Assembly: GCA_965221125.1 (NCBI GenBank)
Contig: CBDCRW010000005.1
Location: 448,001-512,000, forward strand
DNA from: Alphaproteobacteria bacterium
GTDB lineage: Bacteria > Pseudomonadota > Alphaproteobacteria > UBA828
Length of the DNA: 64,000 nucleotides
Direction of reading: 5' to 3'
Position 1 is the stretch's first letter. Each line of letters starts with the position of its first letter. The notes below the pieces were generated by a model that saw nothing but the letters and a program-made list of their open reading frames with translations, was not told where the DNA came from and did no database searches. The position numbers and the translations under genes were made by a program. This document shows, piece by piece, positions 28,443 to 33,803 of the stretch.

Positions 28443-29225
28443 CTAGTCCGCCCCGCAGGCGACGAAGGGCGGGTTGACGAACCCCGCCTTGCCGTAGCGA
28501 AGCGCGCGCCCATCCAGATCGCGCACGTGGCCGCCTGCTGCCTCCAAGATCGCCTGACCCGCCGCCGTGTCCCACTCCATGGTCCGGCCGAAACGCGGGT
28601 AGAGATCGGCCTCGCCCCGCGCGAGCAGGCCGAACTTGAGGGCGCTGCCGGCGCTTGCGGTCCGCGACGGCCGCAGCGCCGCGATATAGGCATCGGTCTC
28701 GGCGTCGCGGTGCGAGCGACTGGCGATCACGGCAGGGCGCGCCGCCGGCACCTGCCCCGCGCGCATCGGCTGCGGCGGCCCATCGCCCACGAAGCGCACC
28801 GCGCCCCCCTGCCCGTCGGCAACGTAGGTCTCGTCCTCGGCCGGCGCGTGGAGCACGCCCAGCACCGGGCGGCCCGCCTCGATCAACGCGATATTGACCG
28901 TGAACTCGCCGGTGCGTCCTATGAACTCCCTGGTCCCGTCGAGGGGGTCCACCAGCCAGAAGCGCAGCCCGGCCGGCGGCGCGGTGTTTCGGGCGTCCGT
29001 GCTCTCCTCCGAGACGACGGGGATGCGCGGGTCGGCGGCTTGCAGGCCGGCGACGATGAGCCGGTCTGCCGCCCGGTCCGCCTCGGTCACGGGCGAGCGG
29101 TCCTCCTTCGTCTCCACCGCCGTGCCGTCGCGGTAGAAGGCCATGATGGTCCACCCGGCCTCCTGCGCGAGACGCCGGGCCGCAGCCGCCAACTGCGCCA
29201 ATTCCTCTCTGCTGGTGCCGCTCAT
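28443..29225 (-). CDS. cysQ: 3'(2'),5'-bisphosphate nucleotidase
   Basis: 'K.D.SPVTEAD', 'SEE', 'FWLVDPLDGTREF', 'ASRSH', 'GSALKF', 'TMEWDTAAG'. Confidence 0.94.
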   Translation of the reverse strand: MSGTSREELAQLAAAARRLAQEAGWTIMAFYRDGTAVETKEDRSPVTEADRAADRLIVAGLQAADPRIPVVSEESTDARNTAPPAGLRFWLVDPLDGTREFIGRTGEFTVNIALIEAGRPVLGVLHAPAEDETYVADGQGGAVRFVGDGPPQPMRAGQVPAARPAVIASRSHRDAETDAYIAALRPSRTASAGSALKFGLLARGEADLYPRFGRTMEWDTAAGQAILEAAGGHVRDLDGRALRYGKAGFVNPPFVACGAD

Positions 29226-29396: not shown

Positions 29397-29630
29397 ATGA
29401 TTAAGGAAACTGTGGTCGCCGTGAGTATCGTCACCATGGCGGCCGGCGCCGCACTTGCGCCGTCGGCCGTATCCGCCGACGATCAGCCGATCGTCGTCGC
29501 CGATTCTCACGATGATCCGTGCAACCCGTGCGCGGCCTGCAACCCGTGTGCCGCGGATGAAGAAGATCCGTGCAACCCCTGCGCCGCCTGCAATCCCTGC
29601 GGCGCCTGCAACCCCTGCGCTGCCGAGTAA
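29397..29630 (+). CDS. Small exported Cys-rich peptide with CNPC repeats (10 Cys)
   Basis: GAGGAGGAG and GAGG upstream, Sec-type signal ending 'AVSA', core [39 protein letters not shown], downstream terminator; repeat shared with 31617..32714. Confidence 0.9.
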
Positions 29631-29661
29631 GCTCGGAAGTAGCTGCGACCTTACCCGAGGG

Positions 29662-29689
29662 CGCCGCCTCAGGAGAGGCGGCGTTCTTG
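29662..29689 (+). terminator. Intrinsic terminator-like hairpin after the CNPC peptide gene
   Basis: CGCCGCCTC-agga-GAGGCGGCG followed by TTCTT; lies between convergent genes. Confidence 0.65.
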
Positions 29690-29738
29690 CATCGGGAATC
29701 GGTGCTGTACGGGCCGGCCGGGCGTCGGCGGGCGTCCC

Positions 29739-30515
29739 TCACTCGGCGGCCTTGGCCTCCCGCGCATCGAGGGCAGCCCTGACCGCCGCCATCTGACCCT
29801 CGATGTCGACCTCGGCCTGCGAGACCACCTCCAGACCGCGATCCTCCAGCGTATCCTTGCCCCCGTTCCGAGGGGTCCAGCTCTCGATCACCTGATCCCG
29901 CGCCTTGAGCAGCAGGATGATCTGCGGCCAGAACAGCCGCACCATGGCGCCGACCCAGCGGTTGGTCGGCCAGGAGGGGCGCGCGTGGTCGATGCCGAAG
30001 AGGCCGATCACCTTGGCGACGTCGTCGGCGCGATACCAGGTCTCGCCGGTGACCCAGCGGTTGGTGGTGAACAGCCTGAGCGGCTGACCCTTCGAGCCCA
30101 TCGAGATGGCGATGATGTGGGTGAGCGCGTCGTCGCCCTTAGGCCACTTGTCGCGGCTCTTGCGGCGCGCGGGCTTCATCCCACGCGGCAGCCCCTTGGC
30201 GCGCACGAAGGTATGAAAGTGCCCGTGCTCCGAATCCCTGAAGCCGCCGGGATGGGCGTGATAGAAGTACTGGGAGCTGCTCTGGCCGTCGAAGACGTCG
30301 CCCTTCGGGTAGTGATCCCACTCGTAGAAGGTCTCGTGCCCGCGCAGCAACTCGCTCACCACGTTGTCGCCGGTCCGGCCGAGCACCCGCTCGACCTCAA
30401 GCACCTCCTCGCCGGCGGCGAGCATCATGCGCAGCCGCTTCGCCGGCTGCGTCGCCATGTCGAGGTGGCGGGTCTCCTCCTGCCGCTCGTTCTTCTTCGC
30501 CGTGGCCTGGGCCAT
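29739..30515 (-). CDS. Uncharacterised His-rich protein (DUF6969-like)
   Basis: 'WDHYPKGDVFD...QYFYHAH...EHGHFHTF...THIIAIS...LFTTNRWVTGETW'; no signal peptide; ATG at 30515. DUF number from recollection. Confidence 0.75.
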   Translation of the reverse strand: MAQATAKKNERQEETRHLDMATQPAKRLRMMLAAGEEVLEVERVLGRTGDNVVSELLRGHETFYEWDHYPKGDVFDGQSSSQYFYHAHPGGFRDSEHGHFHTFVRAKGLPRGMKPARRKSRDKWPKGDDALTHIIAISMGSKGQPLRLFTTNRWVTGETWYRADDVAKVIGLFGIDHARPSWPTNRWVGAMVRLFWPQIILLLKARDQVIESWTPRNGGKDTLEDRGLEVVSQAEVDIEGQMAAVRAALDAREAKAAE

Positions 30516-30616
30516 GCTGCCGCCCTTACGCTCGTTCGCCGGCCATGCCGCTGGTGAAGGATAGTGCCGCGGCCCGGCTCTTGCCAGACCGCCAGCCGTT
30601 CGCGCTCCTCCGCCGG

Positions 30617-31492
30617 CTACTCCCCTTCGCCCGGATCGACGACGAGGCGGAAGCCCACGAGGATGTGCTTGATGTCTGCCGGCCGGCCGTGGCGCGCGGC
30701 AGGGCGGCAAACGCCGCAGCCGCTGTCGTCCCACGAGCCGCCCTTGACGAGGAAGCGCCCCGGATTGCCCGGCGAGGCGGTCCACTCGAAGACCTGGCCC
30801 GCCGCGTCGAGCATGCCGTAAGGGCTCGCGCCGGCGGGGAAACTGCCTACCGGCAGCGTATCGAAGGGCCCGGCGTCGTGGCTGTTGAGCAGCGCCGCGT
30901 CGTACGTGTCGCCCCAGGGGAAGATGAGGCCGTCCGACCCCCGCGCGGCCTTCTCCCATTCGAGCGCGGTGGGGAGCCGCCAGGCGCGCCCGGTCTCGGC
31001 CGAGAGCCAGGCGGCAAAGGCATTGGCGTCGTCGTGGGAGACCATCACCACCGGATGGTCGTCGCGCCCGGCGGGCGGCTTTCCATCCACCCACGCGTGG
31101 CGGCGGGTGCGCTCGTAGGGGTGGATCAGCCGGTAGCCGCGCCAGGTCTCGGGGTCGACGTCGGGCACGCGATGGCCGGTGGCGTTCACGAACGCCTGGT
31201 ACTGGGCGTTGGTGATCAGCGAGCGCGTGATGAAGAAGCGCTCCAGCGACTTCGGCCCGCGCGGGCGCTCGCGGTCGTACCAGCCGCGCTCGCGCGTGAC
31301 GGAGTGGCCGTAGGCGGCCTCGTCGAGCCGGTAGCCGTACTCCCGCTCGGCCGCGTCGGAGCCCGCGATGAAGGGGCCGGCGGGAACCTCGACCACATCC
31401 GGTGGTGCTACGCTGCCGGCGTGAGCCGCGCCCGCGAGGGCCGCGCCGGAAAGCGCGAAACAGAGTGCGAGCAAGGCGCGGGCGAGGATCAT
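30617..31492 (-). CDS. Exported formylglycine-generating-enzyme (SUMF1/FGE-sulfatase) family protein
   Basis: Signal peptide ending 'AAHA'; 'ITNAQY..FV', '[16 protein letters not shown]', '[12 protein letters not shown]', '[14 protein letters not shown]', 'KGGSW', 'GFRLV'. Confidence 0.9.
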
Positions 31493-31616
31493 CCCTGGAA
31501 TCTATTCACGAGCCGCCCGGCGGGGGAATCACAAAAATTTGAGCGGAAGGCATTTGCCCGGCACCATGCGCTCGCCGACAATTCGCAACGAAAACGGTCA
31601 TCAAGGGAGGCCCGAC

Positions 31617-32714
31617 ATGCCACGCTCGAAACCCCTGCTTGCCGGAACGGTGGTCCCCGTGGTCATCGGGCTCGCGGTCGCCACCGGCGGCCACGCCACG
31701 GCCGACTCATCGTCCGGCGAGAGCCCGGCCGCGACCCCGCAGCAACAGGATCCGGGCGTGTTGCTCTTCGCCTCGTGCAACCCGTGCGGGCCGTGCAATC
31801 CCTGCGACCTGTGTGCGGCGGCATGCGGGCCTTGCAGTCCATGCAACCCCTGTGCCGGCGCATGCGGCGCCTGTGGACCGTGCAACCCCTGCAATCCCTG
31901 TGCTGCCGGATGCGGTCCCTGCGGGCCGTGCAACCCGTGCGCGGCCGGTGCTGCGGCCGCCTCCGACTGCGTCGTTCCGCGCCTCGCCGCAGCGTGCAAT
32001 CCCTGCAACCCCTGCGGGCCATGCAATCCCTGCGCGGCGGCGAACCCGTGCAACCCGTGTGCGCCCTGCAATCCGTGCGCGGCTGCCTGTGCGCCCTGCA
32101 ATCCCTGTGGGCCGTGCAATCCTTGCAATCCGTGCGCGGCAGCAAACCCGTGCGCCCCGTGCAATCCCTGCGGCGCCTGCAACCCGTGCAACCCATGCGC
32201 GGCCGCCGAGGAGGTCGAGCTGACCGCCGACGAGGCGAGAGACGCCTACGCCTGCATCAGTGCGACCATGGCCGAGGGCTACGCCAAGTCGGGCAACCAA
32301 TGGGCCGCGTCCTACCGGAACTGGAGGAACGTCGCAGCCCAGCCCTACGTCTCCGACACCCACGGCGCGCGCTACGTCAACAACTACGCCAACGACATCG
32401 GCGCCGACAACTACAGCCTCTTCGAGGACGCGGGGCCGTCTCCTGCCGGAACCGTGCTCGCGAAGGACAGCTTCGTGGTGAGGCCGAACGGCAACGTGGG
32501 CGCCGGGCCGCTCTTCCTGATGGAGAAGATGGAAGCCGGCTTCGACGCCGACACCGGGGACTGGCGCTACACGCTGATCATGCCCAACGGCAAGCTGATC
32601 GGCACCACCGGCGGCAAGGGCGCGAAGAACGTCGTCTTCTGCGCCGAGTGCCACCTCGGCGTCGCGGAATATGACAGCCGCTTCTTCCTCGACGAGGAGT
32701 ACCGGGTCCAGTAA
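31617..32714 (+). CDS. Cytochrome P460 family protein with a 40-Cys CNPC-repeat N-terminal tract
   Basis: GGGAGG RBS; signal peptide; Cys tract; C-terminal domain '[11 protein letters not shown]', 'GTVLAKDSF', 'LFLMEK...GDWRY', single C-terminal CAECH heme motif. Confidence 0.85.
31776..32198 (+). repeat. Coding tandem repeat of roughly 9-bp units (TGC-AAC-CCG) encoding CxP triplets
   Basis: 141 codons with 40 Cys by hand count; synonymous variation among units (TGC/TGT, AAC/AAT, CCG/CCC/CCA/CCT). Confidence 0.95.
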
Positions 32715-32721
32715 GCACCCA

Positions 32722-32765
32722 CCGGCGGCGCGCCGCCCCCCGGCACAGCGCGCCGCCGGCTTTAT
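32722..32765 (+). terminator. Terminator-like hairpin after the P460 gene
   Basis: 12-bp stem CCGGCGGCGCGC...GCGCGCCGCCGG followed by CTTTAT. Confidence 0.55.
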
Positions 32766-32847
32766 CGCCTTCTTGATCGCGGGAGCGAACCCGGCCTATG
32801 TTCGCGCCTGTACCGCCTCGGCGGTGACCAGACCCAAGGAGATACCC

Positions 32848-33237
32848 GTGCGCGCACGACACGTTCTCGCCATCGCCCTCGCCACCGCCATGATGGCGGC
32901 GAGCGCCTCCGCCATTGCCGCCGATGCGAAGAAGGGCAAGAAGGTCTTCAAGAAGTGCAAGGTCTGCCACACCGTCAAGGAAGGCGGCAAGCACAAGGTC
33001 GGCCCCAACCTCTACGGCGTCTTCGGCCGCGCGTCTGGCACCGCCGAGGGCTTCAAGAAGTATTCGAGCGCGATGAAGGACGCGGCGATCGTCTGGGACG
33101 AAGAGACCATCGACGCCTACATCGCCGACCCCAAGGGCTACATCCCGAAGAACAAGATGGCGTTCAAGGGAGTCCGGAAAGAGAAGGACCGGGAGAACCT
33201 GATCGCCTATCTCAAGGAAGCCACCGGCACCGAGTGA
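32848..33237 (+). CDS. Class I cytochrome c (c2/c550-like)
   Basis: AAGGAG RBS with GTG start, signal peptide, '[12 protein letters not shown]', '[11 protein letters not shown]', 'P.NKMAF.G'. Confidence 0.95.
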
Positions 33238-33278: not shown

Positions 33279-33803
33279 ATGTCCGCCATCGACCTGCGTG
33301 ACCACATTCGCGCGATTCCCGACTTCCCCAAGCCCGGCATCCTCTTCTACGACCTCTCGACCCTGCTTGCCCACGGGCCGGCATGGAGCGAAACCGTGCA
33401 CCGCCTCGCCGACGTGGTGCACGAGCACAAGCCCGATTTGCTCGCCGGGATAGAATCGCGGGGCTTCCTGGTGGCCGCACCCCTTGCGCACGCGCTCGGC
33501 TGCGGCTTCATCATGGTGCGCAAGAAGGGCAAGCTGCCGGGCGAGACCGTGGCGCACGAGTATGCGCTTGAGTACGGCACTGATCAGGTCGAGGTGCAGG
33601 CCGACGCCGTGGCTCCCGGCCAGCGGGTCGTCCTCCTCGACGACCTGCTTGCGACCGGCGGCACGGCGGCCGCGGCGCATGCGCTGCTCCGCCAGGTGGG
33701 CGCCGAGGTGGTGGCGGCGGCCTTCATCATCGAGCTGACCTTCCTCGGCGGGCGCTCTCGCCTCGACCTGCCGATCACGTCCCTCGTCGCCTACGACGCA
33801 TAG
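33279..33803 (+). CDS. apt: Adenine phosphoribosyltransferase
   Basis: '[12 protein letters not shown]', 'GIESRGF', 'VRKKGKLPG', 'YALEYG', '[11 protein letters not shown]'. Confidence 0.96.

Follow-up and report, generated by a model that had tools for sequence, protein, structure and literature searches.

The window, by which we mean the whole 64,000-nucleotide stretch of contig CBDCRW010000005.1 from the Alphaproteobacteria bacterium assembly GCA_965221125.1, carries five genes that are bounded by cysQ (28443-29225, minus strand) on one side and by apt (33279-33803, plus strand) on the other, as deduced from the list of open reading frames (ORFs) and from Pfam and NCBIfam searches. They encode a small exported cysteine-rich peptide, a protein of the DUF6969 family, an exported relative of the formylglycine-generating enzyme (FGE), a cytochrome P460-like protein containing a long cysteine tract, and a cytochrome c. 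The five genes recur together in many alphaproteobacterial families and probably mark an unstudied envelope system built on thiols and haem. The features of the locus are the following:

29397..29630, plus strand: small exported Cys-tract peptide, 77 residues (ORF; no Pfam or NCBIfam match)
29739..30515, minus strand: DUF6969 protein, 258 residues (PF22308, 272.3 bits, cut-off 27)
30617..31492, minus strand: exported FGE-sulfatase-family protein with a signal peptide, 291 residues (PF03781, 147.8 bits, cut-off 23.3)
31493..31616, no strand: divergent intergenic region of 124 bp, between the FGE-like start (31492) and the ATG of the P460 gene (31617)
31617..32714, plus strand: Cys-tract cytochrome P460-like protein, 365 residues (PF16694, 29.7 bits, cut-off 27)
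32671..33237, plus strand: class I cytochrome c (c550/c2-like) with a signal peptide (PF00034, 45.5 bits)

An earlier note, made from the sequence of the window alone, had proposed at this place a periplasmic system based on a rare CNPC repeat. The five genes, both cysteine tracts and the divergent spacer were all found at the positions that it gave, and the Pfam search of the five proteins assigned the DUF6969, FGE-sulfatase, Cytochrome_P460 and Cytochrom_C families, while the 77-residue product matched no family. This peptide has a Sec-type signal (…APSAVSA; judged by eye), an acidic mature part and 12 cysteines, mostly arranged as CNPC. The DUF6969 gene probably starts at ATG 30515, 101 nt past the stop codon of the FGE-like gene, and the ATG of the P460 gene at 31617 is preceded by AAGGGAGG. 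The true start of the cytochrome c gene probably lies near 32848; its product scored 112.6 bits with NF043008 (Cyt550), under the cut-off of 240. The cysQ flank was identified by TIGR01331 with 285.3 bits against a cut-off of 228.8.

The co-occurrence of these genes in other genomes, on which the earlier interpretation depended, was found to extend well past the genus, both in the tables for 301 genomes and among DUF6969 loci collected from all species. Within the genus, DUF6969 was present in 20 of 20 other genomes, and each of the 14 loci fetched contained both Cys-tract ORFs, DUF6969, the FGE-like gene, cytochrome c and apt. The length of the tracts varies greatly in the genus: open frames measure 330-807 residues from stop to stop, and the proteins about 310-460 residues from the likely starts. 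At three same-genus loci (L021, L025 and L026) inserted or rearranged DNA places the peptide gene and cysQ some 3-5.5 kb from DUF6969, and the adjacency of the peptide gene is not strict.

For the class, one sample of 301 evenly drawn genomes was searched four times, with the following results:

P460-like domain: 43 of 301 genomes
FGE-like orthologue (E<=1e-40): 26 of 301 genomes
DUF6969: 67 of 301 genomes (a count that includes the unpublished genome G268)
NPC-tract DNA pattern: 37 of 301 genomes

When these tables were read together, 25 of the 26 genomes with the FGE-like orthologue were found to contain DUF6969 and 22 of them the P460 domain, and DUF6969 was present in 36 of the 43 genomes with a P460 domain. 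The tract pattern was accompanied by DUF6969 in 32 of 37 genomes; the other five gave single matches, at least three of which are non-coding tandem repeats. The FGE-like orthologues are distributed over 20 family codes and adjoin DUF6969 in 17 of these. The order of the genes varies by family (for example at L024, L042, L044, L047 and L059): in G035 the FGE-like gene is divergent from the tract-P460 gene and DUF6969 follows, in G128 and G088 DUF6969 is divergent from tract-P460 and the FGE-like gene is absent, and in G289 all five genes are present in yet another order.

A scan of genomes of all species gave at least 575 DUF6969 loci, mostly in Rhodospirillales-type Alphaproteobacteria, including Azospirillum, Inquilinus, Pelagibius, Kiloniellales and Terasakiella. 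In the flanks of the best 80 of these an FGE-like match was present in 42 cases, a Cys-tract ORF in 32 (14 of them without a P460 domain), cytochrome c in 25 and a P460 domain in 18; 14 loci had none of the four. Clustering of the ORFs of 100 DUF6969 loci placed the FGE-like gene upstream on the same strand in 42, and the tightest pair of the module, as judged from the sequences, is FGE-like followed by DUF6969. As a rule the FGE-like gene is followed directly on its own strand by DUF6969, at a distance of about 100-250 nt in the loci read, and the two may therefore be co-transcribed. Two contigs labelled as Sulfuritalea and as metagenome-assembled genomes of a 'beta proteobacterium' (L170 and L180) carry DUF6969 beside tract peptides of the NPCAAK type, which may reflect either transfer beyond the Alphaproteobacteria or mis-binning.

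As regards the cysteine tracts, in the whole 4.58-Mb genome only three ORFs have four or more NPC units, namely the two at the locus and one small paralogue on another contig; the latter (C4:999159-999662, minus strand, outside the window) lies just downstream of an MreB-like gene, with no other gene of the module nearby. The count of 37 among the 301 class genomes was obtained with a degenerate DNA pattern of three NPC units, whose reversed control matched in 3. Third-codon positions vary within the NPC repeats, as is expected if selection acts on the peptide. The tract DNA of the P460 gene is built of degenerate repeats in tandem, whose period is a multiple of 3 bases and for the most part of 9. 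Contrary to the earlier note, in which CNPC was the rare unit common to the system, the orthologues of other families were found to use different repeats, such as NPCAAK, ACNPCAAKNPCAAK, ANPCA, ANPCAANPCA, CAPCSPC and KPCAPCSPCAA, as well as a type, CGACGAK / KCGACGAKAKCGACG, that contains neither proline nor asparagine. On comparison of these sequences, CNPC is a local dialect and not a conserved unit; what persists is the density of cysteine. The pooled tracts consist of 19-23% Cys, 19-25% Ala, 13-17% Pro and 10-12% Asn, with a dominant Cys-to-Cys spacing of 3. Cysteine parity, taken as a test of obligate pairing, was unconstrained (even/odd 31/21 in free peptides and 37/22 in fused tracts).

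Tracts occur both fused to the haem domain and as free exported peptides; the latter are common and adjoin DUF6969 in families having no FGE-like or P460 gene nearby. A strict pattern for a hydrophobic N-terminal segment, K/R-x-x-LL-S/A-S/T-T-V-I-P-x3-G-x-G, matched 46 of 108 tract ORFs, among them both fused and free ones, and inspection by eye adds more. The 77-residue peptide of the window has a different signal and does not contain this segment. Precomputed public annotations give the tract at 31617-32198 of the window and its relatives the spurious labels PF02389 (cornifin/SPRR) and PF02008 (zf-CXXC), which could mislead automatic annotation.

It could be supposed that the five genes have no joint function, the tracts being flexible low-complexity linkers and the gene order no more than synteny inherited among related Alphaproteobacteria. 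The sister family f2 does keep the order cysQ…DUF6969…cytochrome c-apt and contains no FGE-like, P460 or tract gene, so that the layout is in part old synteny. Likewise, for a phylogeny built from 142 distinct DUF6969 sequences the independent-pairs test found changes in adjacency of the FGE-like gene uncorrelated with those of tract or P460 genes (8 supported pairs, median p = 1), the three adjacency traits changing 23-25 times each; these counts of change were identical on a quick tree, the careful tree search being unfinished. The modelled disorder of the tract also suits a linker, and an arrangement of anchor, linker and haem domain exists in cytochrome c_y. However, the genes are found together in about 17-20 families despite changes of order and orientation, and the FGE-like orthologue is almost confined to genomes with DUF6969 and a tract protein. 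Moreover, free tract peptides, which have nothing to tether, are common, and 40-100 cysteines would be superfluous for a linker. We consider a lack of joint function very unlikely.

The P460-like protein consists, in this order, of an N-terminal hydrophobic anchor or signal, tract A, the motif CVVPRL, tract B and the haem domain. Its parts include the following, all on the plus strand:

31968-31985, plus strand: docking motif CVVPRL of the P460-like protein
32199-32711, plus strand: haem domain, the last 170 residues of the P460-like protein
32463-32465, plus strand: Lys at the cross-link position of the haem domain
32523-32525, plus strand: Glu at the distal-carboxylate position of the haem domain
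32640-32654, plus strand: CAECH of the haem domain

Public records name the relatives of this protein either 'cytochrome P460 family protein' or 'hypothetical protein', and most of them carry a precomputed PF16694 match. In the AlphaFold2 model the haem domain has a confidence (pLDDT) above 90, and tract B, with values below 50, is modelled as disordered. All 13 Foldseek matches of the haem domain at E<=0.001 were P460 or c'-beta structures. The similarity of fold has an E of 2.5e-6 and target-normalised TM-scores of 0.68-0.71, with 0.69 to 6HIU. The C-terminal CxxCH residues (C148, C151 and H152) are invariant in the domain alignment, and so is the lysine (28/28 rows of alignment A1 and 39/39 of alignment A3). 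With a profile of 28 domains this lysine aligned with Lys70 of NeP460 (2JE2), a Met of 7S5O and a Phe of 7EAD, in alignments that are weak (E 0.05-0.1) and mutually consistent in all three cases; Table 2 of PMC11928373 gives Lys70, Met79 and Phe61 as the residues of the cross-link position. The glutamate of the sequence MEKM, present in 25/28 (A1) and 30/39 (A3) rows including the window protein, aligns across a gapped stretch with NeP460 Glu96, the distal carboxylate that the same table ties to the oxidation of NH2OH. We place the haem domain in the P460/c'-beta superfamily, where it resembles the P460 branch.

The motif CxVPRL co-varies with a helix-1 cysteine of the haem domain. Of 81 distinct ORFs with a P460 domain, 51 had both, 0 the motif only, 6 the cysteine only and 24 neither, the six Cys-only ORFs being mostly variant motifs or truncated contigs. 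In the AlphaFold2 model the motif (pLDDT 72-85) is bridged to the C-terminal strand of the haem domain. From the model and the co-variation, CxVPRL would be a docking element that probably also forms a disulfide. This reading removes the apparent likeness of the motif to CxPxR, the FGE target sequence invoked by the earlier note, and a role as FGE recognition site was ruled out by the same co-variation and modelled docking; CxVPRL is also seen in genomes with no FGE-like orthologue (G088, G213, G217 and G310).

Lower-scoring P460 paralogues without a tract have no FGE-like, DUF6969 or tract neighbours, and their surroundings are heterogeneous with no common theme. One such paralogue (L066:7737-11882), which has both a docking motif (CTVKRV) and the helix-1 cysteine, lies directly upstream of napD-napA, encoding periplasmic nitrate reductase. 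This neighbour gives one hint of a nitrogen-oxide context for the family.

The FGE-like protein contains the conserved sequence GGSWDDxGCG[VI]CRPAARH, which reads GGSWDDKGCG[VI]CRPAARH in the orthologues and places a CxxC pair at residues 259-262 (30707-30718). The pair was present in 10 of 12 FGE-like sequences from other families; one has CGVY, and one paralogue with 34% identity does not contain the motif. None of the five other FGE-domain ORFs aligned from the same genome has the pair. By alignment with SUMF2 (1Y4J), considered together with the SUMF1 sequence, the cysteines fall in the loop that in FGE contains the catalytic pair. In human SUMF1 these are Cys336 and Cys341. In the window protein the two cysteines are spaced as CG[VI]C, so that it is not a canonical FGE: the assignment to the family in the earlier note holds (PF03781, 147.8 bits). 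All NCBIfam equivalogs scored far under their cut-offs, and the best relatives in the Protein Data Bank (PDB) were ToxD and CalU17. FGE depends on copper. The sequence of the loop makes a thiol- or copper-directed site in the FGE-like protein plausible. No sulfatase-type CxPxR substrate was identified, CxVPRL being the only conserved motif of the tracts; sulfatases elsewhere in the genome were not searched for. A link of the NirV type was also considered and rejected, as the nirK match of the genome adjoins no FGE-like gene. That match (TIGR02376; C7:374518-377112, outside the window) consists of two pieces some 1.6 kb apart and may represent an interrupted or a fused type.

The PF22308 match of the DUF6969 protein spans positions 3-201 of the 201 of the profile, and the Pfam domain begins near 30419. 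The protein is rich in histidine and has no signal peptide. In alignment A2, numbered from the Met encoded at 30425, H38, H56, H58, E66, H67, H69 and H103 are invariant together with D43, D46, N122, R176 and D177. The family is large (at least 1246 cluster representatives at E<=0.001) and nearly always single-domain, with 200-290 residues. The AlphaFold2 model is confident (pLDDT 91.3, predicted TM-score 0.90). No PDB entry was matched in a sequence search or by Foldseek at E<=0.001, and the best Z of VIA-align over 48,161 chains was 3.4; such a lack of matches does not prove a new fold. In the ESM Atlas DUF6969 clusters only were matched. Two rare natural fusions (P0023 and P0094) join DUF6969 to a coiled coil of about 300 residues, a transmembrane helix and a bacterial SH3_3 domain, and hint at a link with the envelope. 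Their topology, with DUF6969 on the cytoplasmic side of the helix, places the protein in the cytoplasm. The system proposed in the earlier note is therefore not wholly periplasmic. As a clue to function the fusions were set aside, since only this coiled-coil, transmembrane and SH3 form and duplications were found, which inform on topology and not on function. Complex prediction between DUF6969 (A2) and the first 70 residues of tract proteins (A4), run without controls, scored 0.00 and gives no indication in either direction.

Other neighbours of DUF6969 recur as well. In 41 of 100 loci a DUF2336 gene (PF10098) comes after DUF6969 in the same orientation, and such a gene is seen downstream in Kiloniellales-type loci and in Azospirillum; it was not found in the genome of the window. 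In Kiloniellales-type loci the FGE-like and DUF6969 pair follows a TAXI-TRAP transporter and a Usp gene, and in Azospirillum DUF6969 adjoins an MlaD-like gene, according to our own reading of the ORFs.

In the 124-bp spacer the element ATCACAAAAATTTGAG (31528-31543) is conserved in the 14 same-genus rows of a 15-sequence alignment made of the window, 13 same-genus loci and L022. A promoter with a putative -35 box TTGCCC and -10 box GACAAT is possible downstream of ATCACAAAAATTTGAG, as read by eye. As a regulon marker the element was rejected: with up to one mismatch it occurs once in the genome, at this locus. Contigs from RNA libraries (4 runs of 3 studies, at least 90% likeness) match parts of relatives of all five genes; they were not used as evidence, since such contigs cannot show transcription, strand or level, and in one small-peptide contig the tract region is replaced by other letters.

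On these data we tentatively favour, with a probability of roughly 0.38, a membrane-tethered module of P460 and thiol tract that delivers electrons to cytochrome c, with the FGE-like protein and DUF6969 as accessory factors. The P460-type haem protein would be held at the inner membrane by its conserved N-terminal hydrophobic anchor and tethered through about 190 tract residues, the mid-tract CxVPRL docking back on the haem domain, probably by a disulfide. The haem domain would oxidise hydroxylamine, or otherwise handle NO or HNO, and pass electrons to the adjacent cytochrome c. Fused and free tracts would together form a local periplasmic array of thiols and disulfides, which could either scavenge NO+/HNO or other thiol-reactive species or buffer the redox state. 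The FGE-like protein, exported and bearing the CxxC pair, may work on the tract cysteines in the periplasm, and DUF6969 may be a cytoplasmic metalloprotein required by the same process. While gene content, domain identities, conserved residues, the disorder of the tracts, the docking motif, the compartments and the linkage across families are established, every chemical step of this scheme is one that we infer.

Several points weigh against this proposal. The tie of the genes to nitrogen oxides is only inferred, the PF16694 match of the window protein is barely over the cut-off (29.7 against 27 bits), and the residue assignments of the haem domain depend on the profile alignments with E of about 0.05-0.1. 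To these must be added the old synteny seen in family f2 and the negative independent-pairs test, the raw counts of the 142-locus set being moreover skewed, as part of its loci had been collected on account of a P460 or an FGE-like gene. DUF6969 is more widespread than the rest of the module and often stands beside unrelated-looking genes (TAXI-TRAP, Usp, MlaD-like, DUF2336), so that it may have a general role. Finally, the neighbours of the five genes in the window are housekeeping genes, with no stress or metal island.

The composition of the tracts also invites an explanation by metal buffering or storage. In the periplasm the tracts would then take up Cu(I) or other thiophilic metals in the manner of metallothionein, with the FGE-like protein as a copper-binding partner, DUF6969 as a cytoplasmic factor for metal handling or sensing, and P460 and cytochrome c as passengers or redox helpers. 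A content of 19-23% Cys with CxxC spacing dominant, the stand-alone tract peptides without a haem domain, the CxxC in the FGE catalytic loop and the seven invariant or near-invariant His of DUF6969, with Asp and Glu, would all agree with it, and exported copper-chelating Cys peptides are a known layout, as described for bufferins in PMC11626156 and PMC12452194. Yet the window locus contains no metal-resistance, efflux or metal-sensor gene, and neither do the recurrent neighbours of DUF6969 in 100 loci; the composition of the tracts drifts freely, with no fixed geometry of a metal site, and cysteine parity is unconstrained. On balance metal buffering appears rather unlikely.

The presence of a candidate enzyme next to tract genes raises the question of maturation in the manner of a ribosomally synthesised and post-translationally modified peptide (RiPP), in which the tract cysteines would be modified by DUF6969 before export or by the FGE-like protein after it, to give a new modified cysteine polymer. 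This would be compatible with a function in either redox chemistry or metal buffering. In numerous families a tract gene is the immediate neighbour of DUF6969, also when FGE-like and P460 genes are absent, and DUF6969 is present in all 32 tract genomes that have more than a stray pattern match; its predicted fold is confident, putatively novel and His-rich. The N-terminal segment is conserved far past the needs of a generic signal peptide and could be a recognition leader, but its invariance in alignment A4 of tract-protein N-termini is partly circular because the rows were chosen by a pattern requiring those residues, and the small peptide of the window does not have it. Against maturation it must also be said that DUF6969 often occurs without a tract gene nearby, that the fused substrate is a full-size haem protein and not a short peptide, and that no known RiPP enzyme, recognition element, protease or exporter was found. 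The MNIO/DUF692 family (PF05114) gave 0 matches in the genome, which is 92% complete, while the control search found it in Caulobacter; radical SAM genes were not searched for. The locus is not an MNIO RiPP cluster, as the earlier note had already observed for DUF692. RiPP-like maturation is judged unlikely.

It is tempting to speculate, although we think it rather improbable, that the tracts, DUF6969 and the CxxC FGE-like protein make up a novel pathway that builds or services a poly-cysteine polymer of the envelope, free or fused to haem. DUF6969 would be a metalloenzyme of new fold acting before export, guided by the N-terminal segment, and the FGE-like protein would bring a new periplasmic chemistry of cysteine. 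If true, this would be a new class of ribosomal Cys-rich material, apart from the MNIO, radical-SAM and lanthipeptide routes. As for the interpretation of the earlier note as a whole, the conserved module and the lack of an MNIO enzyme are upheld, whereas the CNPC unit, the CxPxR analogy and the periplasmic placement of the whole system had to be given up.

A literature search, which covered neither supplements nor subscription journals, returned nothing on DUF6969, PF22308, NPCAAK/NPCAAKNPC/CNPCNPC or cytochrome P460 with formylglycine, and nothing relevant on P460 with cysteine-rich proteins and Alphaproteobacteria. The terms 'Alphaproteobacteria', 'cysteine-rich', 'N-terminal' and 'gene cluster' do not occur in the P460 review PMC11928373. 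The Cys-tract proteins, their link with DUF6969 and a P460 protein with such a tether appear to be undescribed, in line with what the earlier note had supposed. In particular, the search brought up no account of a haem enzyme whose tether contains 40-100 cysteines, nor of free peptides with the same tract. With at least 1246 clusters, a confident model without a solved counterpart and invariant histidines, DUF6969 is unnamed in the literature searched. For this family, as for an orphan branch of the FGE family, the module provides a definite candidate substrate.

To our knowledge, cytochrome P460 has been studied almost solely in nitrifiers and methanotrophs. The presence of a P460-type protein with the cross-link Lys and mostly the Glu in 43 of 301 class genomes indicates that such proteins are widespread in Rhodospirillales-type Alphaproteobacteria; if active, they would convert hydroxylamine to NO or N2O by a route that has escaped notice. 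The protein of the window shares with P460 (CytL of Nitrosomonas europaea and McP460 of Methylococcus capsulatus) and with c'-beta the fold and the C-terminal CxxCH, and with P460 the Lys position and, probably, the Glu position. It differs from the known P460 proteins, to which it has 20-25% identity, in the added anchor and in the two-block Cys tract of about 190 residues with its docking motif. Its hosts are of the Rhodospirillales type (Azospirillum, Inquilinus, Pelagibius), while the solved P460 structures come from a nitrifier and a methanotroph; its gene is linked to those of the FGE-like protein and DUF6969.

Bufferins and other MNIO-modified peptides are likewise small Sec-exported Cys peptides encoded beside a candidate cytoplasmic metalloenzyme, and bufferins buffer copper according to PMC11626156 and PMC12452194. 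In contrast to them, the present system comes without a detected MNIO, its peptides are low-complexity repeats and not a folded core, and one of the 'precursors' is a haem protein of 365 residues. With FGE (SUMF1) and its non-FGE relatives (EgtB, OvoA, PvdO, NirV and ToxD) the FGE-like protein has in common the FGE-sulfatase domain, export and a Cys pair in the same loop. NirV offers an earlier example of an FGE-like protein encoded next to a periplasmic N-oxide enzyme (PMC4770552). The protein described here is distinguished from FGE by CxxC in place of the wider FGE spacing.

Two further systems resemble the module in layout. Cytochrome c_y consists of a membrane anchor, a flexible linker and a haem domain, and MrpX, encoded beside the servicing enzyme MsrP, is a small exported Met-rich sink peptide. 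Compared with both, the residue of linker and sink is here cysteine, which makes up about 20% of the tract, and the partner enzymes are unrelated.

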